In this document: positions 167-19,609 of the stretch, in pieces
How the letters are laid out: each line of letters opens with the position of its first letter
Numbering within the stretch: position 1 is the first letter of the stretch
Source: Mycobacteriales bacterium
GTDB lineage: Bacteria; Actinomycetota; Actinomycetes; Mycobacteriales; SCTD01
DNA: 30,259 bases
Reading direction: 5' to 3'
Assembly (NCBI GenBank): GCA_046713755.1
Contig: JBKKBU010000037.1
Coordinates: 1-30,259 of the forward strand
The notes under the pieces: generated by a model
Told to the model about the DNA's origin: nothing
The model's input: the letters and a program-made list of their open reading frames with translations, nothing else
Database searches by the model: none
Program-made: the position numbers and the translations under genes

Positions 167-567
167 GGGACGAGCTGGCCTGTAAGCCGGGTTCTGTTCC
201 CCTGCCGAGGCAGGAGCGACGATCATCCATCTAGGACCGCTGTTGCCAGCGGCCTCGTGCGGTCTACCCGCAGGCATCGGGCGGGCCGCCCTCGAGCGCC
301 TGCGCAGGAACCCCGAAAGGTTCCCTTTTGACCTTGCTCCGGGTGGGGTTTGCCGAGCCGCCCGGGTCACCCCGGGCGCTGGTGGGCTCTTGCCCCACCG
401 TTTCACCCTTACCGGTCCATGCCCGAAGGCTCGGACCGGCGGTCTGTTTTCTGTGGCACTTTCCCGCGGGTCACCCCGGGTCGCTGTTAACGACCACCCT
501 TGCCCTGTGGAGCCCGGACTTTCCTCGACAGCTGGTGGCTGCCGCGACCGTCCGGCCAACTCGTCCC
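167..567 (-). ncRNA. rnpB: RNase P RNA (bacterial class A)
   Basis: Minus strand begins GGGACGAGTTGGCC, contains GAGGAAAGTCCGGGCTCCACAGGGC and ends ACAGAACCCGGCTTACAGGCCAGCTCGTCCC. These are the universal P4 motifs, and the 5' and 3' ends pair as P1. Confidence 0.98.
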
Positions 568-573
568 AGGTCA

Positions 574-579
574 AGCGTA
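574..579 (-). promoter_or_regulatory. Putative -10 element (TACGCT) of rnpB
   Basis: TANNNT hexamer 6 nt upstream of the RNA 5' end at 567. Confidence 0.45.
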
Positions 580-637
580 CGACGACATCGCGCGCGCCTC
601 ATCGCCGTACTCCCCCTGTCCTGCCAGTCTCGCCGTC

Positions 638-1495
638 ATGGTGTCCCGTCGCTCGCTGCTGCTCGGCGGTGGCGCGGCTGTCGTGACCGCCACGGCTGTC
701 GGTCGGGACCGGCTGCCATACCGGGTGCGCGACACACTGGGACTCGCCGACGACCCTGTCGTCGCGCTGCCGACCGGGCCCACCGGTCCCCTGGTGAAGG
801 GCGCGCTGCCTGGGGGCGCGGGCTTCGGCATCAGCTACCCGCACGGCTCGACCGACAAGGACAGCCTGCCGGTATGCCTCGTCCTACACGGCAGGGGTGG
901 CGATCACACGGACGCCTTCGGCAGCCATGGTCTCGACCGATTCCTGGCCGAGGTCGTGCGCACGGGCACACCACCGTTCGTGCTGGCCGCCGTCGACGGC
1001 GGGCCCGACAGCTACTGGCATCGCAGGAGTGACGGGCGCGATCCCGAGGCCAACGTCACGCAGCTGCTCGCCGAGCTCCAGCGGCGCGGTCACCCGGTCA
1101 ACCGCGTCGCGATCAGCGGATGGTCGATGGGCGGGTACGGCGCGTTGCTCATGGCTGCTCGCCTCGGATCGTCGACGGTCACGGCGGTCGTCGCAGACAG
1201 CCCGGCGTTGTTCCGGCGCTACGCGGACGCACGACCCGGCGCCTTCGACGACGAGGCCGACTACCGCGCCCACGACGTGTTTGCAGCCACCGGTCCCCTG
1301 AGCAATCTGTCCGTGCGGTTGAGCTGTGGTCAGGATGACCCGTTCTTCACGCCCACCGCCCAGCTGGCGGCGGCGCTGCCCCGAGCCGAGGCGTCCTTCG
1401 GCCAAGGCAGCCACAACGTCGCCTTCTGGCGGTCCACGGGCGCGGCCGACCTCCGTTTCATCGGCCGAGCCCTGTCCAACCCGGCACCCCCGTAA
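638..1495 (+). CDS. Tat-exported alpha/beta hydrolase (esterase; Rv0774c/Rv0519c-like)
   Basis: ATG638 gives MVSRRSLLLGGG (twin-arginine signal). Nucleophile elbow GWSMGG, acid residue in GQDDPF, His in GSHN. CAGTCT 7 nt upstream suggests a leaderless mRNA. Confidence 0.85.
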   Translation: MVSRRSLLLGGGAAVVTATAVGRDRLPYRVRDTLGLADDPVVALPTGPTGPLVKGALPGGAGFGISYPHGSTDKDSLPVCLVLHGRGGDHTDAFGSHGLDRFLAEVVRTGTPPFVLAAVDGGPDSYWHRRSDGRDPEANVTQLLAELQRRGHPVNRVAISGWSMGGYGALLMAARLGSSTVTAVVADSPALFRRYADARPGAFDDEADYRAHDVFAATGPLSNLSVRLSCGQDDPFFTPTAQLAAALPRAEASFGQGSHNVAFWRSTGAADLRFIGRALSNPAPP

Positions 1496-1558: not shown

Positions 1559-2716
1559 CTACGGCAGGGCCGTGAGGTGGGCCGTGTCGTTGAGGGAGCG
1601 CACCACGGCCGGCCCATCGGCAAACCACTGCACCTGCGACAGGCAGGCCAGGTCGAGGTGCATGCGGTAGAGCGCCGACGGCGGTGCGTCCAGGGCCAAC
1701 CGCAACATCGTCTTGATGGGTGTCACGTGCGACACGACCACGACCGTCCGGCCGGGGTGGTTGCGGATGACCCGGTCGCGCGCCTGCCGCACCCGCGTGG
1801 CCGTCGCGTCAAAGGACTCGCCGTACGGCGGCGCCGTCGCAGTGTCCGCCAGCCAGGCGTCCAGCTCGCGAGGCCACTGCTTCTTGACCTCCGAGAAGCT
1901 GTAGCCCTCCCAGTCGCCGAAATCGGTCTCTCTGAAGCCGTCGTCGAAGACCAGCTCGAGGCCGGTTGCAGCGGCCACCGCCTCGGCGGTCTGCCGGGCC
2001 CGGCGCACCGGCGAGGACACGATGACGTCGGCGCCCGATCCCCTCAGCCGTTCGGCCGCGGCCGCAGCCTGCGCCAGCCCGACCTCGGTGAGCTCCTGGT
2101 CACCCACCCCAGAGAAGCGCTTCTCGATCGACAGCACCGTCTGACCGTGGCGCAGCAGCAGCGTGGTCGTCGGTGGAGCCGTCGCCTCCTGCCACCCCGA
2201 AAGCCGGTTCGGCACCGGCGCGACCGGGGCGACATCGTGCTCGGCGAGCCAGGCCGCCGCAGCGTCATCGGGCTGCGATCCGCCGCCGGGCTGCCACACC
2301 TCGCCACGAGCCGCGGCGTCCATCGCCGCGTTGGCGAGCGCGTCGGCGTCCTTGTTCTTCTCCCGCGGGATCCACGAGAAGCGGACCCGCGGTAGCTGCC
2401 GCACCAGCTCGGCCGCCTCGCGGGCAAGTGGCTTCATCGACGGGTGCTTGACCTGCCAGCGCCCAGACATCTGCTCGACGACGAGCTTGGAGTCCATCCG
2501 GACATCGACGTCGTCGGCGCCCAGGTCGAGCGCAGCCTGCAGGCCGGCGATCAGTCCGCCGTACTCCGCCACGTTGTTGGTCGCCACCCCGATCGCGGCG
2601 GCCCGCTCGGCGATCACCTCACCCGTCACGCCGTCCTTCACCACCGCGCCATAACCGGCCGGCCCGGGGTTGCCGCGCGAACCGCCGTCTGCCTCGACGA
2701 CGACGCGCAAGCTCAC
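1559..2716 (-). CDS. Bifunctional RNase HI / histidine (acid) phosphatase (Rv2228c-like)
   Basis: N-terminal EADGGSRGNPGPAGYG...TNNVAEYGGL...DSKLVVEQMSG..DALAN (RNase HI). C-terminal LLRHGQT...SHVTPIK (phosphatase RHG motif). GTG start overlaps the upstream TGA. Confidence 0.95.
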   Translation of the reverse strand: MSLRVVVEADGGSRGNPGPAGYGAVVKDGVTGEVIAERAAAIGVATNNVAEYGGLIAGLQAALDLGADDVDVRMDSKLVVEQMSGRWQVKHPSMKPLAREAAELVRQLPRVRFSWIPREKNKDADALANAAMDAAARGEVWQPGGGSQPDDAAAAWLAEHDVAPVAPVPNRLSGWQEATAPPTTTLLLRHGQTVLSIEKRFSGVGDQELTEVGLAQAAAAAERLRGSGADVIVSSPVRRARQTAEAVAAATGLELVFDDGFRETDFGDWEGYSFSEVKKQWPRELDAWLADTATAPPYGESFDATATRVRQARDRVIRNHPGRTVVVVSHVTPIKTMLRLALDAPPSALYRMHLDLACLSQVQWFADGPAVVRSLNDTAHLTALP

Positions 2717-5603: not shown

Positions 5604-6254
5604 GTGCGCCGCTCCACCGTGCTCGCCGCCCTGCTGCTGCTGGGCCTGCTCGGCGTGCCAGCCGCCAGCCCAGAGCGGGCCATCGCAGCCGCTCCCGTCC
5701 GCGCCTTGCTGATCGGCGACAGCATCCTCGAGGGCATCGGCACCAAGCCGCGCCGACCGGTGATGGCCCGGGTCGTTGCCCGCCGGCTCGGCTGGTCGGT
5801 CACCATCGACGGCATCGGTGGCACCGGCTACGTCAACACCGGGCGAGCCATGGGCAACACCTACGGGGAGCGGTTGGAGCGAGCCCAGCTCTCGTCGTAC
5901 GACGTGGTCGTCATCGAGGGGGGGCACAACGACTGGCGGGCTGACCCGACCTTGGTCGCGGACCGGGTGCGAGCAGTGGTGGCGCTGGTGCGGGACCGCG
6001 CGCCGCGAGTCCAGCTGGTCCTCATCGGGGCTTACGACCCGCCGGGCGTCAGGCTGCGCGGACCCGTGGACGCCCTCATCGCCGCGATCGCGCTCGAGCA
6101 GCAGATCCCCTTCGCGTCACCGATCTCCGGGGCGTGGGCTGAGGGGCTGCCCCGGCGGTTCCTCTCGGGCGACAGATTGCACCCCAGCGCATGGGGTTAC
6201 GGGGTGCTGGGCGAGCGGTTGGCCGCTGACCTCGCCCGGCTCACTTCCAGCTGA
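5604..6254 (+). CDS. Secreted SGNH/GDSL hydrolase
   Basis: Signal-like VRRSTVLAALLLLGLLG; blocks GDSI, GGTGY, EGGHND and DRLHP. Confidence 0.9.
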   Translation: MRRSTVLAALLLLGLLGVPAASPERAIAAAPVRALLIGDSILEGIGTKPRRPVMARVVARRLGWSVTIDGIGGTGYVNTGRAMGNTYGERLERAQLSSYDVVVIEGGHNDWRADPTLVADRVRAVVALVRDRAPRVQLVLIGAYDPPGVRLRGPVDALIAAIALEQQIPFASPISGAWAEGLPRRFLSGDRLHPSAWGYGVLGERLAADLARLTSS

Positions 6255-8229
6255 GCGAGCCGGTCCGCTGCAGGTCGCCCGCGTCGCCGGTCGCGATCCC
6301 GGTCTGGTTGACCGCGTAGACGTGCTCGGCGTCGTGGAGCACCCGCTCCGCCTGGAAGCCGGACGCCAGGTCGAGCCGGCCCGCCTCCGACAGCTGCCCG
6401 TCCGCACCGACCCGCACCCCGAGAGCGAAGCCGCCGCCGCGATAGTTGCTGAACGGCAGCAGCGCATGTCGCCGGGCGGGGTCGTAGCCGAAGGCGCGGG
6501 AGTCGTCGAGCGCAGGGCTCCACCCCTGGCCGAGGCTGAGCCGATCGATCTGCTTGGGCTCGGCCCGGTTGCGCAGGTCGAAGGTCGACAGCTGCATGCC
6601 GGTCGTTCGACCGGTCTTCTCGTCAGCGTCCATCCCGACGCCGAGCAGCAGGCCGTCACCGATCGGGTGCAGGTAGGTGGAGAAGCCAGGGATCTTGAGC
6701 TCCCCGACGATCCGCGGATCCTCGGCGTCGGCAAGGTCGAGGACGTAGAGCGGGTCGGTCTGTCGGAAGGTGACAACCGTCGCCATGGTGCCGAAGTAGC
6801 GCACCGCCTGGATCCGCTCACCCTTGCCCATGCCGCTGACCTTGCCCACCGTGACGAGCTCGCCGGCCGACTCCGCGAGGACGTGCAGTGACGAGATCGA
6901 CTGCTCGGCGCCCTGCCACGGCGGGGAGCTGGTCACCGCTACCCGTAGCCGACCCTCGTGCTCCGACAGCGCCCAGCGGCCCATGATGTAGCCGGGCACG
7001 CTGCCGGTCCCGACGTAGCGGGTGTCGTCGGTGGTGGTGTTGAAGGCGTGCAGTTCTGTGGTGACCTGCTCCGCGTCGGGTCGGGGTGCGCTACTGCCGA
7101 TCTCCGGGTTGGTCGGCTGCTGGGTGCCCCACCTGCTGGTGGCGATGTAAAGGCGCCCCTGGCTGGCGTAGACGAGCTGGCCGTCGGTCGTGACCGCCTC
7201 GCTGTCGAGCGCGACCAGATCCCGCGATGGGTCGAGGGTCGTGACGAGCAGGGTGCTAGCCCCTCGCGGGTCCTCCGCGCGACTCACCTCGTCGCAGCCC
7301 ACCGCCCGGCTGTCCGAGCGCACCCGACCGTCACGGCCGGTGTGCACCGCCCTCGGGAGCACCTCCAGCAAGGAGATCTCCTCAGCGGTCCGCTGGTTGG
7401 CGCGCAGCGACTTCTTCTGATCCGCCGGGGTCTGCTGGCCGGTCGGGTAGGTGGCCTCGAGCCGCGGGGTGGAGCTGGTGACGAGTCGGACTCTGCCGTC
7501 TGCCAGCCGGGCGGACAGGTAGGTCCCCTCGAGCTGCAGCCGTTCCAGCACGACCGGCTTCTCCGGCGTGGCGAGGTCGACCAGGACCGCCGTGGTCAGA
7601 GGATCGCCGCCGCCGTAGTAGCCATAACGGCTGTCCGCGGACCCCGGGTTGTTGCGCCAGCTGCTGATCAACACGACCGCGCGATCACCCGACAGCAGCA
7701 GCTCGCCGCCATAGCCCTGATCGGTGTCGGTCACGGCCGTCGTGGACAGCAGCTCGGGCTCGGCGCCGGAGCGCAGCACGCGCAGCCGGCCCTGGGCGAA
7801 GGTGACGATCAGGCCGTCGGCGAGCTTGGTGGTGTCCGGTTCGTCGACACCCTGCTCCTGCAGGTTGGTGCCGGACTTCCCGGATCCGACCGCATCGAGG
7901 CCACCGCCGGTGGCGCCGGTGGTGCCCCCGCCGGTCGTACCCCCACTGAGGGCGCCCCCGGCGTCCCTGGTGACTGGGGCGGCCGCCGGCACCGGCACCG
8001 CACCGGTGGCGAACTCCAGCCGGCCGTAGCCCTGCTGGCCGAAACCCCACGGCGTGGCGCTCTTGCGCAGCTCGGCGCGGTAGTGCGACAGGAGGGCGTC
8101 ACAACTGGCGTAGGGGATCAGTCCCGCGGCAGCCGCCGGCGGGGTCGCTCCGGGGAGGAGCAGCACCACCCCCGCGGTGGCCGATCCGACAACGCCCAGG
8201 CTGACGAGGGTCCTACCGAGTGCTCGCAT
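6241..8229 (-). CDS. Secreted protein with C-terminal beta-propeller domain (Beta_propel family)
   Basis: Signal peptide MRALGRTLVSLGVV; GTNLQEQGVDEPDTTK, GKGERIQAVRYFG, TFRQTDPLYVLDL and ELKIPGFSTYLHP motifs. Confidence 0.9.
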   Translation of the reverse strand: MRALGRTLVSLGVVGSATAGVVLLLPGATPPAAAAGLIPYASCDALLSHYRAELRKSATPWGFGQQGYGRLEFATGAVPVPAAAPVTRDAGGALSGGTTGGGTTGATGGGLDAVGSGKSGTNLQEQGVDEPDTTKLADGLIVTFAQGRLRVLRSGAEPELLSTTAVTDTDQGYGGELLLSGDRAVVLISSWRNNPGSADSRYGYYGGGDPLTTAVLVDLATPEKPVVLERLQLEGTYLSARLADGRVRLVTSSTPRLEATYPTGQQTPADQKKSLRANQRTAEEISLLEVLPRAVHTGRDGRVRSDSRAVGCDEVSRAEDPRGASTLLVTTLDPSRDLVALDSEAVTTDGQLVYASQGRLYIATSRWGTQQPTNPEIGSSAPRPDAEQVTTELHAFNTTTDDTRYVGTGSVPGYIMGRWALSEHEGRLRVAVTSSPPWQGAEQSISSLHVLAESAGELVTVGKVSGMGKGERIQAVRYFGTMATVVTFRQTDPLYVLDLADAEDPRIVGELKIPGFSTYLHPIGDGLLLGVGMDADEKTGRTTGMQLSTFDLRNRAEPKQIDRLSLGQGWSPALDDSRAFGYDPARRHALLPFSNYRGGGFALGVRVGADGQLSEAGRLDLASGFQAERVLHDAEHVYAVNQTGIATGDAGDLQRTGSLSWK

Positions 8230-8237
8230 GGTGCTAG

Positions 8238-8263
8238 GACGCAGCCTGGGGCGAATCGGTTGC
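8238..8263 (-). promoter_or_regulatory. ECF-type promoter GCAACC-N16-CGTC for the beta-propeller gene
   Basis: Exact 16-nt spacer; the -10 ends 8 nt before ATG8229. Confidence 0.55.
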
Positions 8264-8351
8264 TTCCCCCGTGCCCAAGTTCCCCGCCATCGTGCGGCCC
8301 ACCGGCAAGGATGGCCAGGCTCCGTCGAGCCAGCTGGGAGGCCGCACTCGC

Positions 8352-9506
8352 ATGACCGTCGCATCGGACCAGCCGCTGACCGTAGGCGTCCTGCGGGAGC
8401 AGGCCCGCGACGAGCTGCGCGTCGGCCTCACCCCCGACAGCACCGCCCGGCTGCTGCTCGCCGGGCACCGGGTGTTCGTCGAGCAGGGCGCGGGTCAGCA
8501 GGCCTGGTTCTCCGACGACGACTACGCCGAAGCCGGGGCGACCGTCGCCCCCTGCGCCACCGTGCTGGACGCCAGCGACGTCGTCGTGTGCCTGCACCCG
8601 TCGGCGATCCTGCACGCGCTGAGCCCGAAGCACATCGTCGTGGGCCTGCTCCAGCCGCTGCTCGATCCCCTGTTGATGCAGCGCATGGCCGACGCCGGCG
8701 TGACGGCGCTGAGCTTCGACATGCTCCCTCGCACCGTCAGCCGGGCCCAGTCCATGGACGCCCTGACCTCACAAGCCAGCGTCGCCGGCTACAAGGCAGC
8801 CCTCGTTGCCGCCGATGCCTACGGCGGGTTCTTCCCCATGCTCACGACCGCAGCCGGTACGACGAAACCCGCCACCGTGCTGGTGCTCGGAGCCGGCGTC
8901 GCCGGGCTGCAGGCCATCGCCACGACCCGGCGGCTCGGCGCAGTGGTCAGCGCCTTCGACGTGCGCGACAGCGCCCAGTCCGACATCCGGTCGCTCGGGG
9001 CGAGCGTGCTCGATGTCGGCGTGACCGTCGAGAGCCACGGCGGCTACGCCCGGGAGCTGGTAGCCGACGAACAAGCCGAGCTGACCGCCCGGGTGGCCGA
9101 CGCGATCGGGCGCTTCGACGTCGTCATCACCACCGCGCAGGTCCCCGGTCGCCCACCGCCGCTGCTCGTGCCGGCCAGCGCACTCTCGAGAATGCGTCCG
9201 GGCTCCGTCGTCGTGGATGGCGCGGCGAGCGACTTCGGCGGCAACGTCGAGGGGTCGGAGAACGGCCAGACGATCATCACGCCGGGCGGCGTCACCATCA
9301 TCGGCGCCGGCAACCTGGCGGCACACGTCCCTCGGGCGGCTTCCACCTCCTACGCCCGCAACGTCGCCGCCCTGGTCGCCTACTTCACCAAAGACGGCGG
9401 CTTCGCGATCGACCTCGAGGACGAGGTGCAAGCCGGCCTGGTCATCACGCACGCCGGCCGGGTCGTGCACCCGGCCGTCCGCGCTCTCCTGGAAGGGAAC
9501 CCATGA
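8352..9506 (+). CDS. pntAa: NAD(P) transhydrogenase subunit alpha, part 1 (dI)
   Basis: RTVSRAQSMDALTSQASVAGYKA, VLVLGAGVAGLQAI and VITTAQVPGRPPP motifs; GGAGG RBS. Confidence 0.95.
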   Translation: MTVASDQPLTVGVLREQARDELRVGLTPDSTARLLLAGHRVFVEQGAGQQAWFSDDDYAEAGATVAPCATVLDASDVVVCLHPSAILHALSPKHIVVGLLQPLLDPLLMQRMADAGVTALSFDMLPRTVSRAQSMDALTSQASVAGYKAALVAADAYGGFFPMLTTAAGTTKPATVLVLGAGVAGLQAIATTRRLGAVVSAFDVRDSAQSDIRSLGASVLDVGVTVESHGGYARELVADEQAELTARVADAIGRFDVVITTAQVPGRPPPLLVPASALSRMRPGSVVVDGAASDFGGNVEGSENGQTIITPGGVTIIGAGNLAAHVPRAASTSYARNVAALVAYFTKDGGFAIDLEDEVQAGLVITHAGRVVHPAVRALLEGNP

Positions 9507-11272: not shown

Positions 11273-11497
11273 ATGGCGACCACGGTCCTCGTGTCAGAAG
11301 CGACGAGGGCCCGGGCGGCCGCGCTGGCGTCCCAACGCGGGACCTCGATCGGCGAAGTCGTTGACGACGCGCTCGATGCCTACGAGAAGGCCGAGTTCTG
11401 GCGCAAGACGCAGGATGCACTTGCGCGGCAGCCGGTCGAGCGCGATGAGGACCCGGCGTGGGAGCGCTCCGTCGCCGACGGCCTCGACCGTGAGTGA
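11273..11497 (+). CDS. Ribbon-helix-helix antitoxin (MazE-like)
   Basis: 74 aa. N-terminal strand-helix-helix pattern (TTVLVSEATRARAAALA..SIGEVVDDAL) and acidic tail WERSVADGL; overlaps the toxin start. Confidence 0.8.
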   Translation: MATTVLVSEATRARAAALASQRGTSIGEVVDDALDAYEKAEFWRKTQDALARQPVERDEDPAWERSVADGLDRE

Positions 11498-11831
11498 AGG
11501 TCTGCGAGGCCACATCTGGCTGACAGACTTCGGCGTCCCCGTCGGCACCGAGCGAGGCATGGTGCGACCGGCGTTGGTGGTGTCAGGCGACGGCTGGAAC
11601 CGTCATGCGTCGACCCTGACCGTCTTGCCCCTGACGAGGACGTCGCATGACTTCCCGACCCGGATCGAGGTTGAGGCCACGCCGCAGAACGGTCTGGACG
11701 AGACCTCGTATGCGCGCTGCGAGGACATCCGGGCAATCAGCGAACGGCGGCTGCTCCGCCCGCTCGGCCGCGTCGATCCGGTCGTGATGCTGACGGTCTC
11801 CCGGACCCTGCGGCTGTTCCTCGAACTCTGA
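11490..11831 (+). CDS. mazF: PemK/MazF family endoribonuclease toxin
   Basis: RGHIWLTDFG..GTERGMVRPALVVS..N..TVLPLT..CEDIRAIS.RRL motifs; GTG11490 is in frame. Confidence 0.92.
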   Translation: MSEGLRGHIWLTDFGVPVGTERGMVRPALVVSGDGWNRHASTLTVLPLTRTSHDFPTRIEVEATPQNGLDETSYARCEDIRAISERRLLRPLGRVDPVVMLTVSRTLRLFLEL

Positions 11832-12098: not shown

Positions 12099-12437
12099 TC
12101 AGGGCTCGGGATGGAGTCGGCTGATGAGTCGTGAGACCGCCGCTTCGAGTTCGTCGAGATCGCTGCCGACGGTAGTGGCGACGATGGCGTGAGAGGTGTC
12201 GAAGTACCGATGCGCGAGTTGGTCACGCATGGCGGCGATCTGCTTCCAGGGGATGGTCGGCTCGGTCGCAAGGAGGTGCGGTGAGAGCGCTTTGACGGCC
12301 TCCCCGATCTCCAGAATGCGGATCCGGATCGCGTCGAAGACCAGGCCGTCGGAGAGATCCCCGCGGAGCAGGTGCGCACGGATGGCCGCGATGGCGGTGC
12401 CAATGTCGCTCAGACGCTGATCGTCGTAGCGCTTCAT
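12099..12437 (-). CDS. HepT-like (DUF86) HEPN ribonuclease toxin
   Basis: IGEAVKAL..IPWKQIAAMRDQLAHRYF, which is an RX4HXY motif; coupled to the MNT gene. Confidence 0.92.
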   Translation of the reverse strand: MKRYDDQRLSDIGTAIAAIRAHLLRGDLSDGLVFDAIRIRILEIGEAVKALSPHLLATEPTIPWKQIAAMRDQLAHRYFDTSHAIVATTVGSDLDELEAAVSRLISRLHPEP

Positions 12438-12952
12438 AGGCGAATCAGGTCGGCCTCGACGAGCGGGCGCACTCCTGGCTTCAGGTCTGCCTCAGGGATC
12501 AGGTCGACCGAGCATCCGAGGAGGTCTTCCAGCTCCTCGCGGACGCGCCCGTAGCCGAGCATCCCCATGTCTTCGGGGAACTCGACGAGCAGGTCGACGT
12601 CGCTGTCACAGCGGTCTTCTCCACGGGCGACGCTCCCGAACACACCGAGAACATGAACACCGTGCTCGGCGGCGATGCGCACCAGCTCAGTCCGGCGACG
12701 ACGCAGTCGACGACCGATCGGTCCCGACAGGCGCCTCAGACCGTGCTTTGGAGTCCCGAACGTGACCTCGAGCTCGTAGCCTGTTGCCGCGATCAGGGCG
12801 GCGAGCGTCGGAACGGAGGGTTGCCTTCGACCCGCCTCGTACACGCTGATGACGCTCTGCGTGACGCCGGCTCTGCTGGCCACGTCGGCCTGGGACAGGC
12901 CCGCCGCCGTCCGGGCCTCGCGCAGCAGGCTGCCCGCACGCGTCGTGTCCAC
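12434..12952 (-). CDS. XRE-HTH fused minimal nucleotidyltransferase (MNT) antitoxin
   Basis: LREARTAAGLSQADVASRAGVTQSVISVYEAGRRQPS (XRE HTH) plus VFGSVARGEDRCDSDVDLLV (MNT). GTG12952 lies 6 nt after a TATCCT -10. Confidence 0.92.
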   Translation of the reverse strand: MDTTRAGSLLREARTAAGLSQADVASRAGVTQSVISVYEAGRRQPSVPTLAALIAATGYELEVTFGTPKHGLRRLSGPIGRRLRRRRTELVRIAAEHGVHVLGVFGSVARGEDRCDSDVDLLVEFPEDMGMLGYGRVREELEDLLGCSVDLIPEADLKPGVRPLVEADLIRL

Positions 12953-13139
12953 CGGCCAAGGATAGCGCATTGTGCATGTCTCGACGAACCGATACGCTGC
13001 GCGTACACACCTCCCGCTGCTTCCTTCAAGGCGAGGGACCTTCCGTGTCGTGGCCTGACGCGAGCAGGTCGAGGCTCACGTCGGCGCTTTCCTGCGCGCA
13101 AGCCCACGCCCGGCCAACGCGATCTGGCGGACATCGGGA

Positions 13140-13697
13140 CTACGGCATCGCGTTGCACAGCAAGGGACCGGCCCCGAGCGTGACGGCCTTATCCGATGGG
13201 CCGTCATGGACCTGCACGGAGCGGCCGAGCGACCCGCTCGTCGCGCAGGCGGTGCCGTCGAGGACCACCTTCACGGCGGCAGTACGTCCGGCGGTGCCGT
13301 CGAAGGTCGTCGATCCTGACCTACCGTCGCTCTCGAAGCGACCGCTCTGCAGCGTGAAGCCGTCGCCTGCCAGCGCCCAACTGACCTGCAGTCGCCGGCC
13401 GTTGATGATGGTCCGCAGCTCGGCTCGCTCGGCCTCGATGGTGAGCTGACCCGCCGCCAGCGGCATGGACGTCTGCGCGCTGCTGCACGACGACCGCACG
13501 CAGTCTTCGATCCGCATCAGCAGCGCGTCGCCTGCGGTCCCCCGGGACGCGACGATCTCGACCTCTCGATACCCGGTGGCGGTGTCGACGGTGAAGGAGG
13601 TGATCGCGGCCTCGGTCACGCCGTCGGCATGGGACGGCACGGCGACGGTTGCGAGAACGACGCCGGCGAGCAGGACGGCGGTGCGAAGCTGGATCAT
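13140..13697 (-). CDS. Secreted hypothetical protein A (185 aa, 4 Cys, beta-rich)
   Basis: Signal peptide MIQLRTAVLLAGVVLATVAVPSHA-D; GGAG RBS; preceded by an ECF promoter. Confidence 0.8.
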   Translation of the reverse strand: MIQLRTAVLLAGVVLATVAVPSHADGVTEAAITSFTVDTATGYREVEIVASRGTAGDALLMRIEDCVRSSCSSAQTSMPLAAGQLTIEAERAELRTIINGRRLQVSWALAGDGFTLQSGRFESDGRSGSTTFDGTAGRTAAVKVVLDGTACATSGSLGRSVQVHDGPSDKAVTLGAGPLLCNAMP

Positions 13698-13735
13698 CTG
13701 CGGATCTCCGATGTCAGGTGGTAGGTCGATCAGTG

Positions 13736-13761
13736 GACGGTGTCGGGGCAGCGCAGGTTCG
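13736..13761 (-). promoter_or_regulatory. ECF promoter CGAACC-N16-CGTC driving secreted protein A
   Basis: Read directly on the minus strand; the -10 continues CGTCCAC as in the divergent partner. Confidence 0.75.
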
Positions 13762-13774
13762 CTCCGAATTCGCG

Positions 13775-13800
13775 TGAACCTCGCGGGGGTCTGCGACGTC
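13775..13800 (+). promoter_or_regulatory. ECF promoter TGAACC-N16-CGTC driving sigma 1 (autoregulation)
   Basis: Exact 16-nt spacer; about 50 nt upstream of the sigma 1 start. Confidence 0.75.
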
Positions 13801-13852
13801 CACAGTCGTCAGCCCCGCCTGGGGCCGTCAGGGACGGATGCAGGGAGGTGAC

Positions 13853-14359
13853 GTGACACTGGACGTGTCGGCACCGTCCGCCACGCCGGCCGCAGACGAC
13901 TTCGAGGCGCTCTACACGGCGCACTTCCCGCGGCTCGCCGGCTACTGCCTGTCGCTGGTGGGCGACGCTGGTGCGGCCACCGACATCGCGCAGGAGGCCT
14001 ACGCACGGCTGTACGGCCGGTGGACCAGCGTCCGCGACCCGCAGGCCTGGCTGTTCTACGTCGCCACCAACCTCACGCACGATCACTGGCGCGGACGTCA
14101 GCGCGAGACCGGGCTCGTCGACGCGATCGGCGTCGTCGAGCAGCGCCGTGGACCCAGCCCCGCGCACGACCCGTGGTTGCGCGATCTCGTCGAGAGGCTG
14201 CCCGAGCGGCTGCGCAGGGCCGTCCTGCTGCACTACTACGCCGACCTGCCCGTCGAGGAGGTCGCGCGACTCCTGCATCGACCAGTCGGCACCGTCAAGC
14301 GCCGCCTCCACGAAGCGCGCGCCCTGCTGGGCGCGCAGATCGGACCGGACCGTGGTTGA
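13853..14359 (+). CDS. ECF sigma factor 1 (SigE-family-like)
   Basis: FEALYTAHFPRLAGYC..DIAQEAYARLYGRW (region 2) and LPERLRRAVLLHYYADLPVEEVARLLHRPVGTVKRRLHEAR (region 4); GGAGG RBS. Confidence 0.95.
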   Translation: MTLDVSAPSATPAADDFEALYTAHFPRLAGYCLSLVGDAGAATDIAQEAYARLYGRWTSVRDPQAWLFYVATNLTHDHWRGRQRETGLVDAIGVVEQRRGPSPAHDPWLRDLVERLPERLRRAVLLHYYADLPVEEVARLLHRPVGTVKRRLHEARALLGAQIGPDRG

Positions 14360-15209
14360 CCTCCCGCGCCGCCCCTTCACCTTCCTGCCGCCGCCGCCCG
14401 GCGGTAGTGCCGGCCCACGGCGGCGCGGCCGCGCCCGCCAGCGCAGGCAGGCCCTGGTCGCGGCCAGCGCCAGTGTGGTCGTGATCGCGTCTGTCGTCGG
14501 GCTGGGCCTGGCGTCCACGACGTCCGCCATCGATCGCCTTGAGCCGGAGCAGTTCGCGAGCCCGAGTGCGGGACCGACCGGGGACCCAGGCACCGGCGGC
14601 ACAGCGCGCCCCACACCGTCGAGCGCGGACAGCGCGCCAGCCTCACCTGCGGCAAGCAAGCCGGCAGCGGAACCGGGCACAGCCTCGTCCGCCCAGCCGA
14701 CCGGCGCCCCGGCGACCGCACCTGCAACGACTCCGGGGGGATCCGCGCGCCCGGTCCTGCAGCGCAGCTACCAGCCGCCGCCGGAACCGGCCGGAGCAAC
14801 GGTGTGCGGCGCCCGCGCGGAGGGCCCGGTCGGAGCGCCCGCGACCCGCATCGGATGGTGCACCGCGGTCGAGGTCGGCGACAGCAGCGGCAGCGGCAGC
14901 CGCTATCTCACCGTGAGGGCATGCCGCTCATCGGAGGCCGCAGCGGCGGATCTCCACGTCGACACCGGAGCGATCGCGCTGCGCGTCGAGCAGGACGAGC
15001 GGGTGCTCTGGCGCCTGGAGCTCCCCGACGAGCCGGCCGCCGTCCTCCGCACCGACCCCGGCGGTTGCTGGCGCTGGCGCTACACGTGGGACGGCCTCGC
15101 CGACAACGGCAAGCCGGTACCCGCCGGCAGTGCAACAGCGCTCGGGCGCTCGCTCAGCGACGAGTTGCGCGACACCGAGGTCAGTCAGGCCTACACCAGC
15201 GAGGGATGA
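14352..15209 (+). CDS. Putative transmembrane anti-sigma/sensor 1 with 4-Cys Ig-like (BsuPI/FlgD-like) C-terminal domain
   Basis: 8-nt overlap with sigma 1. Arg-rich cluster, TM helix (ALVAASASVVVIASVVGLGL), P/A/S/T linker, then TVC..GWC..CR..GCWRWRYTWDG..DNG. Confidence 0.8.
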   Translation: MVDLPRRPFTFLPPPPGGSAGPRRRGRARQRRQALVAASASVVVIASVVGLGLASTTSAIDRLEPEQFASPSAGPTGDPGTGGTARPTPSSADSAPASPAASKPAAEPGTASSAQPTGAPATAPATTPGGSARPVLQRSYQPPPEPAGATVCGARAEGPVGAPATRIGWCTAVEVGDSSGSGSRYLTVRACRSSEAAAADLHVDTGAIALRVEQDERVLWRLELPDEPAAVLRTDPGGCWRWRYTWDGLADNGKPVPAGSATALGRSLSDELRDTEVSQAYTSEG

Positions 15210-15328
15210 CCGTAGGACGCCGAGAGGGCAGCGGGGATAGGGATCATCAAAGCCATCAAGGGTGTCATTACTGGCGCTTTCGTTGAGTTCTGAGTGGCGA
15301 CGCCGAGGGGGGAACATGCGCGCGCGCC

Positions 15329-15964
15329 ATGACGGCGGCTGCCGCCATGCTGCTCGGGTTGGCAGCCCCGTCGCTGGCCGGCCCGAGTTCCTGCAACGTC
15401 GTCGTGGACGATGCTGGCGACGCCAATGAGAATCCAGCGGTGGGCGGGACGCCCGTCGACAGCCCGGTCCCGACCACGGCCGCGGTTGACGTTCTGACGG
15501 CGGACCTCGCCTCGGATTCGCGGACTCTGACCGGCGTCGTTCGGCTTTCGGCTGCACCGCAGCCGGACGCCCAGTCCCAGTCCGGCTACCTGTACGAGAT
15601 CCGGTTCACCGTCCGTGGGCACACCATGGCTCTGTTCGCCAAGACGACGGTTGACGGGCAGAGCTTCGACGCCAGCGAGGTGTCCGGGCCAAGCAACTTG
15701 CCACGATCAGCTGACGGACCACCGGTGACCGGACAGTTGGATCTTCGTGGCCGTCGGGTTCTGATCCACGCGCCCTGGTCCCGACTTGAGCAGCTCGCCG
15801 GGGAGTCGCTCAAGGGCGGAGTTGCCAGCGAGATCGCGGTCTACACCTACAAGGCCGCTGGCAGCCAAGCGACGGGTTCGTTCACTGTGGTGGCCGACAT
15901 CGCGGAGGCACGGCGCAACTACGTCCTTGGCTCACCATCGTGCCAGCGGCCAGGGCGATCCTGA
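15329..15964 (+). CDS. Secreted hypothetical protein B (terminal Cys pair)
   Basis: Hydrophobic signal-like N-terminus, SC..VVDDAGD at the mature N-terminus and YVLGSPSCQRPG at the C-terminus. Start uncertain (see findings). Confidence 0.75.
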   Translation: MTAAAAMLLGLAAPSLAGPSSCNVVVDDAGDANENPAVGGTPVDSPVPTTAAVDVLTADLASDSRTLTGVVRLSAAPQPDAQSQSGYLYEIRFTVRGHTMALFAKTTVDGQSFDASEVSGPSNLPRSADGPPVTGQLDLRGRRVLIHAPWSRLEQLAGESLKGGVASEIAVYTYKAAGSQATGSFTVVADIAEARRNYVLGSPSCQRPGRS

Positions 15965-16000
15965 GGACTCTCCGCGTGCGGCAACGCTTCCGAGGGGCGG

Positions 16001-16867
16001 CTAACGCAGGATCTTCGTCGTGCTTGTCCCGGTGAGGTTGCCCTGGTCGGGTGCGACGACGGTGGCGGTGACGGTGTACTCGCCGGCGCCGAGCAGAATG
16101 CCGTCGGATGTCGTGCCGTTCCAGGTTGTTGTCCATCGGTAGCACTGGGCCTGCTCGATGGTGAAGGCGTGCGACTGCTTGGCCAGCCGCTGGGTGGCGG
16201 ACCAGGTCCACAGCGTCTTGCCGGCGCGGCTGATGACGATTTCGAGCTCTTGGCTGGTGGGGAAAGTCAGGGTGCCGGAGCCGGTAATCCCGGCTGTCTG
16301 CCGGCACAGCTCCACTCCCACGGTAGCGACGTTGGTTCCGCTGACGTCGCCACGGTTGTACTCGTTGACGCACCAGCCGTGGTTGTAGGGATCACCGCTG
16401 GATGCTGGGTACTGGCACACCGACCCGGCCTGGGTGCCGGAGTAGGACCGTTGCACGCTCTTGTGCCAGGGGCGCCGGTCAGTGCTGCTGGCGCCTTTGG
16501 TCGGTCGGGGGGTCGCCTTGGGTGCCGACGCTGCCGTTGGCTGCGTCTCGGAGCCAGTCGTGACCGCACCCTGCGTGCCCAGTGCGGCCCCAGCCTGTGA
16601 TGGTGGGGCGGCGAGCGGGCCGCGGGAGGCTGCGACGCTGGGGTTCGCCTCGGGGCCTGTGCGAGCCGGCTGCTGCAGCACGGTGTCGCTTGTCCCGCCG
16701 CCGGCAAAGACTGCGAAGGCCACGACGACCGACGCGGCTACAGCGGTACTTGCGCCGCCGGTGACGGCGAGGCGCCGCCGGCGCAGCTGGACGCCACGCT
16801 CCACTGCGCTAGCCAACGCGCCCAGCGGGGGCTGGCGGCGAAAGCTGGGGTTGGTGCCAAGCCTCAT
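16001..16867 (-). CDS. Putative transmembrane anti-sigma/sensor 2 with BsuPI-like domain
   Basis: ATGA overlap with sigma 2. RRRR then TM helix, then linker, then SVC..GWC..CR..LTFPTSQELEIVI..LWTWS..QCYRWTTTWNG..DG..GEYTV. Confidence 0.82.
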   Translation of the reverse strand: MRLGTNPSFRRQPPLGALASAVERGVQLRRRRLAVTGGASTAVAASVVVAFAVFAGGGTSDTVLQQPARTGPEANPSVAASRGPLAAPPSQAGAALGTQGAVTTGSETQPTAASAPKATPRPTKGASSTDRRPWHKSVQRSYSGTQAGSVCQYPASSGDPYNHGWCVNEYNRGDVSGTNVATVGVELCRQTAGITGSGTLTFPTSQELEIVISRAGKTLWTWSATQRLAKQSHAFTIEQAQCYRWTTTWNGTTSDGILLGAGEYTVTATVVAPDQGNLTGTSTTKILR

Positions 16868-17355
16868 CGGGGGTCCTCTCCGAGTGCAACAGCGAGCTGC
16901 GTCCTGGCCTCGTGCAGGCGGCGTTTAACCGTCCCGAGCGGCCGTTTCACGAGCCGAGCGACGGTCTCCAGCGACAGGTCGGCGTAGTAGTGCAACAGCA
17001 CGACGTCGCGCAACCGAGCCGGCAGGCGACGGACCGCATCGACGGTGTGGTCATGCCCCGCTGGCACCTGCCGTTCCGGCAGCACCGCGGGGTCGATCGT
17101 GGGCTCGCGGCGCTGGTCGTGCCAACGCTGCCGAACAAGATTGGTGGCGATCTTGAAGGCGTAAGGCCGCGGCTCAGCCAGGGCCCCGAAGCGGGCGTAG
17201 ACCCGAGCCAGCGACTCTTGGGCGACGTCCTCAGCAGCGACCAGGTCACCCGAGGTCAACGTCGCGGCGAACGCGAACAGGTCCGGCCAGACCGCGGTGT
17301 AGAAGTGCTCGAACGTGTCGGGCACGGCACGCACCACGGCCTCTCGTACTCCCAT
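16864..17355 (-). CDS. ECF sigma factor 2
   Basis: FEHFYTAVWPDL..AEDVAQESLARVY and LPARLRDVVLLHYYADLSLETVARLVKRPLGTVKRRLHEAR. Start could be ATG17355 or a nearby GTG. Confidence 0.93.
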   Translation of the reverse strand: MGVREAVVRAVPDTFEHFYTAVWPDLFAFAATLTSGDLVAAEDVAQESLARVYARFGALAEPRPYAFKIATNLVRQRWHDQRREPTIDPAVLPERQVPAGHDHTVDAVRRLPARLRDVVLLHYYADLSLETVARLVKRPLGTVKRRLHEARTQLAVALGEDPR

Positions 17356-17380
17356 CGCCAGGTCGGTCACAGCATCACCA

Positions 17381-17490
17381 TCAGCAGCTATGGCCAAAGG
17401 TTCATTCGAGTCTGCCGAATCGGACAAACCTGCCGAGCCGTCGGTAGCTGCAGCGTGCGTCCAAGGCTCAGCGTCGGTCCGCACGGGTTC
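17381..17490 (-). promoter_or_regulatory. Two copies of GAACC-N13-GCTGA upstream of sigma 2
   Basis: Copies at 17403-17381 and 17490-17468 with identical spacing. Confidence 0.5.
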
Positions 17491-17529
17491 GGTGTCCGTC
17501 CGGCGGGTCGCTGACTCGTGGGGGTTGGT

Positions 17530-18396
17530 CTACTGGCTGGTGCTGAATCGGCTCTCGTCGGTCTTGCCGGCGAGTTCGTCGGCCTTGACCTGAACCGCCA
17601 GGACGAGCTCGACCTCACCGCCGTAGGTCTGACCGCCGTCACCGACGCCGTCCCACTTGACCCTCCAGCGCAGGCAGTCACCACCCGCGAGCGTGTCCGT
17701 GCGCGCGGTCTGCGCGAAGGACTGACCGAGCGACCAGGTCCACACGGCCTCGCCGGTTGCAGGGTCACTGACGACGAAATCGGTCTCCTGCGCGGTTCGG
17801 AAGCTCAACTGGCCCGACCCCTGCGAGCCGCGGCAGACAAGGGTGTTGAGCGTGTACGTCTTGGCGGACGTGTCCACACTCGCGGTGAGACACCAGTCCC
17901 CGGGGCCAGGCAACACGGTGCCGCCACCCACGCCGCCGTTCTCGTTGCCGCACACCGTCGACAGCCGTTCCGACGTGCGTGTGACCGGCGGTTTCGGGCG
18001 CGCACTTGTCTCGCGGGTCGTCGTAGCTGTCGCACTGACGGCGGGTGCCGGCGCGGTCGACCCTGCCTCGGGTGAGGCGCCAGCGTCGGGCCGGCTCGAG
18101 CTCGACGGCACTGAGGACGCCGAGGCGGTCGGCTCGGAGGTCGGCTCGGCGCTACTCGACGGGCCGACAGCGAACTCGGCCTGCTGCTCAAGACTGATGC
18201 TGCCCGGGCTGACCGCCGCGAGCGCGACAACGGCGACCGCACTCACGGACAGCACCCCGCCGGCGCCGGCAAGCCCAGCCTTCCGGCGGCGACGGCGGCG
18301 AACGAGTTCACCGGCGTGCGCTCGTTCCTCCGCCCGAACGGGCAGTGGACCTGCCGGTCCACCGAGACGGCCGAGGACGTCGTCGAGGTCACTCAT
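17530..18396 (-). CDS. Putative transmembrane anti-sigma/sensor 3 with BsuPI-like domain
   Basis: 8-nt overlap with sigma 3. RRRRRRK then TM helix, then linker, then TVC..DWC..CR..LSFRTAQETDFVV..VWTWSLGQSFAQ..L.GGDCLRWRVKWDG..DGG. Confidence 0.85.
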   Translation of the reverse strand: MSDLDDVLGRLGGPAGPLPVRAEERAHAGELVRRRRRRKAGLAGAGGVLSVSAVAVVALAAVSPGSISLEQQAEFAVGPSSSAEPTSEPTASASSVPSSSSRPDAGASPEAGSTAPAPAVSATATTTRETSARPKPPVTRTSERLSTVCGNENGGVGGGTVLPGPGDWCLTASVDTSAKTYTLNTLVCRGSQGSGQLSFRTAQETDFVVSDPATGEAVWTWSLGQSFAQTARTDTLAGGDCLRWRVKWDGVGDGGQTYGGEVELVLAVQVKADELAGKTDESRFSTSQ

Positions 18397-18880
18397 CAGA
18401 GGCTCCTAGGATCGTGGCCAGCCGGCCGCGCGCCTCGTGGAGACGCTGCTTGACCGTGCCGACGGGACGTTGGGTGAGCTCGGCGACCGATTCGATCGGG
18501 AGGTCGGCGAAGTAGTGCAGGAGCACGGTCGTGCGCAGCCGCGCCGGGAGCCGGTCAACCGCGTCGCGTACGCCGTGGTCCGGCCCCGCAACGGAACTCT
18601 GCGCTGACTCACTGAGCTGGCGCATCGCGCCGTCGTGGCGCTTGCCCTTCGACCAGTGGTCACGAATGAGATTCGTAGCGACCAGGTACACCCACGCGCG
18701 AGGTTGGCGCACACTGCGCCAGCGCGAGAACAAGCGCACCAGCGACTCCTGCGCGATGTCACGAGCGACCTGCTCGTCGCGAGTCAGACGTTGGCAGTAA
18801 CCGGCCAGAGCCGGAAACTGCACTTCGAAGAACTCGTCGAAGGACCCCGCGCCGTCGCTCTTTATGAGCGAGACGTCCAC
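18389..18880 (-). CDS. ECF sigma factor 3
   Basis: FDEFFEVQFPALAGYC..DIAQESLVRLFSRW and LPARLRTTVLLHYFADLPIESVAELTQRPVGTVKQRLHEAR; GTG18880 follows a GGGGGA RBS. Confidence 0.94.
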   Translation of the reverse strand: MDVSLIKSDGAGSFDEFFEVQFPALAGYCQRLTRDEQVARDIAQESLVRLFSRWRSVRQPRAWVYLVATNLIRDHWSKGKRHDGAMRQLSESAQSSVAGPDHGVRDAVDRLPARLRTTVLLHYFADLPIESVAELTQRPVGTVKQRLHEARGRLATILGASDE

Positions 18881-18933
18881 GTTCCCCCACCCCGTGGCAT
18901 CGGCCACTCCCGTCGCAGTGTGCACGTCTCTAA

Positions 18934-18959
18934 GACAGGTGAAGATCGGCGAAGGTTCA
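18934..18959 (-). promoter_or_regulatory. ECF promoter TGAACC-N16-TGTC for sigma 3
   Basis: Exact 16-nt spacer, about 55 nt upstream of GTG18880. Confidence 0.65.
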
Positions 18960-19256: not shown

Positions 19257-19535
19257 ATGCCCCGCACCCGTGAACAGCTTCAACAGGCGCTGACCGACAC
19301 CGAGGCATGGCTGGACAACCTGGACCCGGACGCCATCGCGTACCCCGACGCAGGCGGCGCGGACCTGCGCGCGATCGGTGAGGCGCTGCGGGCGGTCGCC
19401 GCCAGCGACCTGGACCTGGCCGATCGCGTCGCGCAGGCCCGCACCCAAGGCAGGACCTGGACGCAGATCGCGACGGTCCTGGGCGTCAGCAAGCAGGCGG
19501 CGCGAGAGCGGTTCGGGGAACCGACCCACCGGTAG
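19257..19535 (+). CDS. Small protein with C-terminal HTH (antitoxin-like regulator)
   Basis: ADRVAQARTQGRTWTQIATVLGVSKQAARERFG is an HTH typical of small actinobacterial regulators; AAGGGA RBS. Confidence 0.8.
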   Translation: MPRTREQLQQALTDTEAWLDNLDPDAIAYPDAGGADLRAIGEALRAVAASDLDLADRVAQARTQGRTWTQIATVLGVSKQAARERFGEPTHR

Positions 19536-19609
19536 TGGTCCCAGCAGGACTCGAACCTGCGACATCCGCCTTGTAAGGGCGGCGCTCTAGCCAACTGAGC
19601 TATAGGACC
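19536..19609 (-). tRNA. tRNA-Val (anticodon TAC), CCA not encoded
   Basis: GGTCCTATAGCTCAGTTGGCTAGAGCG-CCGCC-CT-TAC-AA-GGCGG-ATGTCGCAGGTTCGAGTCCTGC-TGGGACCA; all four stems pair. Confidence 0.98.

Follow-up and report, generated by a model that had tools for sequence, protein, structure and literature searches.

Three SigE-like ECF sigma factors coupled to BsuPI-type membrane proteins, putative anti-sigma factors, in an array of a Mycobacteriales genome

Positions 13,140 to 18,959 of contig JBKKBU010000037.1 (assembly GCA_046713755.1, a Mycobacteriales bacterium) hold an array of eight genes, as listed from the open reading frames (ORFs) of the window, by which we mean the whole stretch of 30,259 nucleotides (nt) analysed here. 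The array lies between toxin-antitoxin genes on its left and a tRNA-Val gene on its right, and it comprises three pairs, each made of a sigma factor of the extracytoplasmic function (ECF) type and a membrane protein that we call its partner and regard as a putative anti-sigma factor, together with two secreted proteins, A and B (Table 1). The source is a metagenome-assembled genome (MAG) of 3.3 Mb in 497 contigs, 83% complete, with 4.3% contamination and about 70% GC. The labels used below are G000 for this genome (the own genome) and C37 for the window contig; the remaining G, L and C numbers denote the genomes, loci and contigs compared.

Table 1. Genes and promoter motifs of the array, in window positions
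Feature	Position	Strand	Basis or remark
Secreted protein A	13140-13697	-	ORF
Protein A promoter, CGAACC-N16-CGTCCA	13734-13760	-	ECF-type motif
Sigma 1 operon promoter, TGAACC-N16-CGTCCA	13776-13802	+	ECF-type motif
Sigma 1	13853-14359 (alternative start 13838)	+	ORF, Pfam
Membrane partner 1	14352-15209	+	ORF, family profile
Secreted protein B	15329-15964	+	ORF
Membrane partner 2	16001-16867	-	ORF, Pfam BsuPI
Sigma 2	16864-17355	-	ORF, Pfam
Candidate sigma 2 promoter, GAACC-N16-GATGGTG	17376-17403	-	Predicted; canonical -35, non-canonical -10
Membrane partner 3	17530-18396	-	ORF, Pfam BsuPI, structure model
Sigma 3	18389-18907	-	ORF, Pfam
Sigma 3 operon promoter, TGAACC-N16-TGTC	18934-18959	-	ECF-type motif

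All three sigma factors contain Sigma70_r2 and Sigma70_r4_2 above the Pfam cut-off and lack region 3, and they score 55-63 bits against the NCBIfam model TIGR02937 (cut-off 42.9). With regions 2 and 4 only, and a length in the range of about 160-200 amino acids (aa), each is an ECF (group IV) sigma-70 factor. Sigma 1 has 168 aa from a GTG at 13853 that is preceded by GGGAGG (an ATG at 13838 would give 173 aa), sigma 2 has 163 aa from an ATG at 17355, its ORF staying open up to a GTG at 17484, and sigma 3 has 172 aa from a GTG at 18907 or 163 aa from a GTG at 18880. The three are 45-46% identical in pairwise alignment and share the region 4 signature that the first-pass annotation had read in them; region 2 of sigma 2 differs from those of sigmas 1 and 3. 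For each, the best NCBIfam family is TIGR02983 (SigE), at 109, 93 and 96 bits, with sigma 1 at 109, all below the curated cut-off for membership of 141.55 bits. By these sequence matches the window sigmas are SigE-like, and the sigma side of the system appears conventional, not exotic, because the best hit is the SigE family and because the promoters are of the type characterised for Streptomyces coelicolor sigma-E. The annotation had recognised no characterised ECF group in these proteins, a view that their likeness to SigE and their sigma-E-type promoters qualify.

The partners have 285, 288 and 288 aa (partners 1, 2 and 3), and ORFs, Pfam, the family profile and alignments bear out the single architecture ascribed to them. 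In the nine partners found in the own genome, a cytoplasmic N-terminus of 29-45 residues leads through an Arg-rich stretch into one hydrophobic helix, followed by a Pro/Ala/Ser/Thr linker of about 90 residues and a C-terminal four-cysteine domain of about 140 residues. Among 69 family members the transmembrane helix starts at residue 29-45, with a median of six Arg or Lys in the 12 residues before it; the linker is 57% Pro/Ala/Ser/Thr, and exactly four ectodomain cysteines are present in 67. The C-terminal domain is a BsuPI domain (PF12690) by Pfam in partners 2 and 3, at 36 and 45.6 bits against a gathering threshold of 22.9, and by fold in partner 3. In the AlphaFold2 (AF2) model of partner 3, built from 69 sequences, the domain has a predicted local distance difference test score (pLDDT) above 90 and matches the Ig-like fold of Bacillus subtilis IPI (3ISY) with a TM-score of 0.85 and a root-mean-square deviation of 2.1 Å (Foldseek), while the N-terminus forms two helices, residues 2-10 and 22-43. 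Partner 1 lacks a Pfam BsuPI match; it scores 262 bits with the family profile, aligns with the family and keeps the four cysteines. The four-cysteine domain is probably disulphide-bonded. The founding member of the BsuPI family, IPI, reportedly either inhibits the subtilisin-like protease ISP1 tightly or competes as its substrate; which of the two applies has been disputed, and the family has been removed from MEROPS (PMC3901451). Some database proteins, P0007 (862 aa), P0019, P0108 and P0119, have three to six tandem four-cysteine BsuPI-like domains and lack the sigma-coupled N-terminus.

The coupling of sigma and partner is strict. The two genes overlap by 8 nt in pair 1, 4 nt in pair 2 and 8 nt in pair 3, exactly as first annotated, and a GGAG-like Shine-Dalgarno sequence precedes each window partner start, in support of translationally coupled pairs. 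All eight own-genome pairs with the junction on a contig (the C147 pair being excluded) show the same 4- or 8-nt overlap with a Shine-Dalgarno sequence. A wider search for sigma genes followed by membrane BsuPI proteins, as the first-pass annotation had suggested, found a sigma of the same family immediately upstream and on the same strand in 41 of the 42 members with upstream DNA; these members come from some 20 genomes or contigs of metagenomes. The tree of the sigmas broadly agrees with that of the partners. Comparison of five orthologous pairs gives identities of 53-79% for the cytoplasmic N-terminus, 34-46% for the linker, 25-56% for the ectodomain and 74-88% for the sigmas, and in the own genome other sigma-coupled membrane proteins share the N-terminal design while their ectodomains are unrelated. 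Such a pattern would be consistent with sigma binding that constrains the N-terminus while the sensor evolves fast. A putative anti-sigma role has indirect support from the coupling, the co-phylogeny and the conserved N-terminus, and most likely the partner acts as an anti-sigma factor in which a conserved sigma-binding head is joined to an exchangeable sensor.

The same observations bear on a different view of the partners, as co-transcribed cargo: membrane-anchored, wall-displayed protease inhibitors or binding proteins under sigma control, with the sigma itself under some other control, such as the transcriptional control that CseBC exerts on S. coelicolor sigma-E. The database name, 'BsuPI-related putative proteinase inhibitor', points that way, as do the reported inhibition of, or competition for, ISP1 by IPI (PMC3901451), the lack of a recognised anti-sigma domain in the partners and the existence of ECF39 subgroups that have no anti-sigma at all (PMC7826278). 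However, the partner keeps a strict position directly after the sigma, its start codon overlapping the sigma stop, in 41 of 42 members. Its N-terminus is the part best conserved between orthologues, which would not be expected of a mere anchor, and the same N-terminal design recurs, fused to unrelated ectodomains, beside other sigmas. Nor does any pair seen have a two-component system beside it: no kinase or response-regulator domain occurs among the window genes or the neighbours of the other family members examined, and the pairs seen do not have the layout of a sigma-E/CseABC-type locus, with cseB/cseC and cseA adjacent. We consider the cargo reading unlikely because of the conservation pattern and the strict coupling.

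The array had been described as a triplicated cassette, a description that the phylogeny contradicts. In both the sigma and the partner tree, each of the three pairs of the window belongs to a different subclade; because of this, they are best described, on the sequence trees, as anciently diverged paralogues gathered in one array and not as a local triplication. At least nine strong sigma/partner pairs are present in the own genome (three on C37 and one each on C253, C373, C490, C91, C77 and C147, the last cut by the contig end), with a more divergent one on C305. When a profile built from the nine own-genome partners is searched against 1.84 billion cluster representatives, 214 clusters match at E≤1e-30, and the number rises to 814 at E≤1e-10; the best 150 matches listed are almost all full-length proteins of 265-315 aa. 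A word-based search with partner 3 returns a single relative, compared with hundreds by the profile. The few named matches bear the label 'BsuPI-related putative proteinase inhibitor' or simply 'hypothetical protein' and come from Mycobacteriales or Frankiales MAGs. The distribution is patchy: full-length copies occur in three of 30 close relatives in a species-representative sample, and a class-wide sample of 300 such genomes has them in 13, of which 11 belong to a single family, with 1-6 copies each. The own genome, a bin, has the highest copy number seen.

Tandem arrays of such pairs recur elsewhere, in L040 with three pairs, in G319:C101 and in G256:C14. L040, from a Mycobacteriales MAG (GCA_035536355.1, DATLOG010000071.1, 140-6549), combines its three sigma/BsuPI pairs with a protein A orthologue; its third partner is split by the gene caller into a 112-aa fragment, and an M23 peptidase gene follows protein A. 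A sigma 1 orthologue, 86% identical, stands beside that protein A orthologue, and the L040 MAG has no close orthologue of sigma 2 or sigma 3.

Promoter motifs link the modules to their sigmas. Promoters that S. coelicolor sigma-E targets have a -35 AAC and a -10 CGTC(T) with a spacer of 16-17 nt (PMC6767563), and comparison with that promoter table places the motifs of the array in the sigma-E type. GAACC-N16-CGT lies upstream of most sigma genes of the own genome, and GAACC-N16-CGTC(C/T)A upstream of most paralogues and orthologues; autoregulation, as first proposed, is likely. The shared -35 GAACC matches the conserved region 4 helix, in line with the near-identical -35 specificity claimed for the three sigmas. 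The claim that cognate promoters are visible holds for sigma 1, sigma 3 and protein A, holds in part for sigma 2 and fails for protein B. For sigma 2, a second GAACC lies about 87 nt upstream of the first; neither box is followed by CGTC, and both have GCTGA after 13 nt. This may reflect a changed -10 preference of sigma 2.

Protein A has 185 aa, a clear signal peptide and four conserved cysteines. Eight more loci have a homologue of it in divergent orientation upstream of their sigma, with a signal peptide, four conserved cysteines and 26-31% identity (alignment A4), the L040 orthologue reaching 57%. These loci are C373, L015, L017, L027, L028, L031, L037 and L040, and they come from the own genome (C373), G009, G016, G062, G184, a Frankiales MAG, an ENA contig and the L040 MAG. 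The sigmas beside protein A homologues cluster loosely in the tree. Protein A was first annotated as an orphan; comparison of sequences identifies it as a conserved divergent third component of the sigma 1 subclade. Its AF2 model is an all-beta meander or barrel at pLDDT 80, for which no confident fold match was found (Foldseek TM-score ≤0.49; VIA Z ≤7.4, the tool's stated noise range). A likeness to the beta-barrel co-sensors VtrC and ToxS (Z 4-5) is a lead only.

The region between protein A and its sigma carries mirror-image GAACC-N16 promoters on both strands in six of the eight intergenic regions scanned, L040 being left out. Within a locus the -10 hexamer is equal on the two strands, and it differs between loci (CGTCCA, CGTGTA, CGTCTA); a seventh locus has CTCTCC on both strands. 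GAACC-N16-CGTCCA occurs four times genome-wide, two of them as the back-to-back sigma 1/protein A pair, and GAACC-N16-CGTGTA twice, both in the C373 intergenic region, and from each sigma 1/protein A and C373 promoter copy it is 32-36 nt to the start codon downstream. These comparisons provide good evidence that the modules differ in -10 preference and that protein A is a direct target of the neighbouring sigma. The earlier label of secreted outputs is thus supported for protein A, by the mirror promoters, and not for protein B, which has no visible cognate promoter. The short motif is a poor guide to a wider regulon: GAACC-N16-CGT(C/G) was rejected as a predictor, as its 110 matches in the whole genome are among the highest counts, with 50-96 at other spacer lengths. 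The counts vary with spacer length in a 3-nt period that stems from coding sequence, and only the longer -10 variants are informative. Elsewhere in the window, GCAACC-N16-CGTC at 8238-8261 (-) stands just upstream of a secreted Beta_propel (PF09826) gene at 6241-8364 (-), which is a candidate target of a SigE-type sigma; the pattern has five matches in the window where 2.3 are expected, which is not above chance.

Protein B is a different case from protein A, to which it is unrelated. It has 211 aa, a cysteine near each end and a weak signal peptide that lacks N-terminal positive charge. No ECF promoter was found upstream of its gene; transcription of the sigma 1 operon may simply continue into it. 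Annotated as a second orphan, it belongs instead to a separate multi-copy secreted family that has no Pfam match, forms tandem arrays on C297 (1424-4761, about five copies) and C333 (2805-4273) and occurs also on C298 and C63 of the own genome. No sigma/BsuPI pair was detected on the array contigs C297 and C333. Unrelated secreted proteins of about 190-210 aa adjoin other sigma/BsuPI pairs, at 277-909 (+) of L007 (G000:C91) and at 1668-2237 (-) of L040. A kinship of protein B with these 210-aa and 189-aa proteins was rejected, there being no significant similarity beyond a DxxGD-like motif, which in all three follows shortly after the signal peptide.

Taken together, the array is likely to consist of three independent, autoregulated SigE-type sigma/anti-sigma modules with a BsuPI sensor, with protein A as the dedicated output of module 1. 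In the proposed mechanism, the N-terminal segment of the partner (about 30-45 aa, two predicted helices and then the Arg-rich stretch) would hold the sigma at the membrane, and the BsuPI Ig-like domain, placed within the cell wall by the long Pro/Ala/Ser/Thr linker, may serve as the sensor. An extracytoplasmic cue would lead to destruction of the partner, by analogy probably through site-1 cleavage followed by an M50 site-2 protease; an M50 site-2 protease is encoded in the own genome. The freed sigma would then transcribe its own operon from the GAACC-N16-CGTC promoter. In module 1 it would also transcribe the divergent protein A gene through the conserved mirror-image promoter, which would make protein A a dedicated output or feedback component of that module.

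Several observations weigh against this model. No anti-sigma family match was found in the partners at E≤0.1 in Pfam or NCBIfam. The class I anti-sigma domain is N-terminal, has about 70-90 aa and comprises three to four helices. The cytoplasmic segment of the partners, with only 29-45 aa, is far shorter and does not constitute such a domain (ASDI; zf-HC2, RsrA or RseA_N type). Across the whole family the N-terminal sequence is weakly conserved, and where the profile matches other proteins in the N-terminal part only, the compositional bias of the linker may have contributed. On the promoter side, sigma 2 lacks a canonical -10, and distant family members have GAACC with a -10 of GCTCT or GTCT type; a strict CGT is present in three of 21, and it was rejected as a general rule for the family. 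The copy number, finally, is taken from a MAG of many contigs with some contamination.

A more specific version of the model treats the partners as protease-sensing receptors, in which the BsuPI ectodomain would lure extracellular subtilisin-like proteases as bait or as a decoy substrate. The attack by such a protease would itself be the site-1 event that frees the sigma, the paralogues, at least nine in number, would form a repertoire for different proteases, and protein A would be a countermeasure or co-sensor. The biochemistry of BsuPI (PMC3901451), an ectodomain that diverges faster than the sigma and the expansion into many paralogues are all consistent with this version. However, no protease gene is consistently linked to the pairs; the neighbours seen are an M23 peptidase, an M16 peptidase, a hydrolase or nothing relevant. 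The inhibitory role of IPI is itself contested, with the family struck from MEROPS (PMC3901451), and Ig-like folds are generic binding modules. We regard this version as doubtful. It is equally speculative that the BsuPI partners constitute an unrecognised class of anti-sigma receptors that act as protease bait, with each sensor wired through a private -10 to a small regulon, which in the sigma 1 subclade would be protein A alone.

The setting of the array raises a further question, namely whether it is a horizontally acquired island at tRNA-Val, in which the clustering of the three pairs would be functionally meaningless. Two toxin-antitoxin modules bound the array on one side, and on the other it faces the 3' end of tRNA-Val. 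The left side has a MazF/PemK-like toxin gene (11478-11831, +; PF02452 at 88 bits), for which no antitoxin partner was identified, and, directly beside the array, a HepT/MNT toxin-antitoxin pair at 12099-12970 (-), comprising a ribonuclease and a nucleotidyltransferase with a helix-turn-helix (HTH). On the right, tRNA-Val(TAC) at 19535-19609 (-) marks a break in synteny with the same-genus genome G001 (G001:C20, L121). There the tRNA is followed by the same MDMPI-family gene (72% identity), and its other side lacks the array, the toxin-antitoxin modules and a 92-aa ORF. Against acquisition as an island, neither an integrase nor a repeat of the tRNA-Val end (att) was found in the window, and the GC content of the array equals that of its flanks. 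Arrays of pairs recur in the other genomes named above, and the island reading is silent on what each pair does. A mobile island is thus left without support, and we judge this reading improbable.

The 92-aa ORF, at 19257-19535 (+), stops exactly at the tRNA-Val boundary; it gives weak HTH-like matches, including a faint match to a Sigma70_ECF region 4 (E 0.04), and could encode a small DNA-binding protein or be a remnant. A scan for sigma-70 promoters and terminators found nothing. The PntB protein of the own genome is closest, at 66-68% identity, to proteins of Mycobacteriales and Jatrophihabitantaceae MAGs and of Micromonospora.

Several known systems resemble the modules in part. B. subtilis SigV-RsiV and Escherichia coli RpoE-RseA-RseB/DegS share with the proposed modules a membrane-held sigma, an extracytoplasmic sensor and an autoregulated operon, and RsiV sets a precedent in that its ectodomain, on an anti-sigma, binds lysozyme, which is a hydrolytic enzyme. 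RsiV and RseA differ in having no sequence or fold relationship to the partners, whose cytoplasmic segment is much shorter and for which proteolytic release is assumed. CnrH-CnrY-CnrX (ECF291), with its class II short anti-sigma, likewise combines a very short cytoplasmic sigma-binding segment with an extracytoplasmic partner encoded at the locus; CnrX is a metal sensor that binds CnrY, and the likeness seen is one of layout.

S. coelicolor sigma-E (SigE; ECF39) is the closest curated sigma family (93-109 bits), with the same promoter type (PMC6767563), and is likewise actinobacterial with many paralogues per genome. In contrast to the window sigmas, which have a membrane partner directly downstream, it is controlled transcriptionally by CseBC and the CseA lipoprotein. 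The putative anti-sigmas of the ECF38/ECF39/ECF51/ECF222 clade share a cytoplasmic region across groups and are mostly single-pass proteins (Casas-Pastor et al. 2021, PMC7826278); the shared N-terminal design with variable ectodomains described here is similar, at the level of the clade. The main text of that ECF classification 2.0 (PMC7826278) makes no mention of BsuPI or PF12690, and a literature search on BsuPI domains with anti-sigma or ECF sigma factors found nothing relevant. IPI has the same ectodomain fold as the partners at about 18% identity. It is a small soluble single-domain protein, whereas in the partners the four-cysteine domain is the terminal part of a type II membrane protein coupled to a sigma.

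The sigma/BsuPI pairing is thus confirmed; it is found again in a few lineages of actinobacteria, is uncharacterised and represents a variation on a well-known way of sensing the envelope. If the partners prove to be ordinary anti-sigmas for generic envelope stress, they would add only one more SigE-like subgroup. To our knowledge, ECF sigma/anti-sigma pairs are a major route of bacterial signalling for which the sensed signal is unknown in most groups. The family described here offers a compact and tractable case, with a short and unconventional segment predicted to hold the sigma and a defined, foldable ectodomain akin to a protease inhibitor. Within one subclade the circuit is apparently closed, its only predicted targets being the sigma operon and one divergent secreted protein, with near-unique promoter variants. 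Such modules may supply orthogonal sigma/promoter parts, and they could be used to test whether bacteria sense proteolytic attack on the envelope through inhibitor-like domains.

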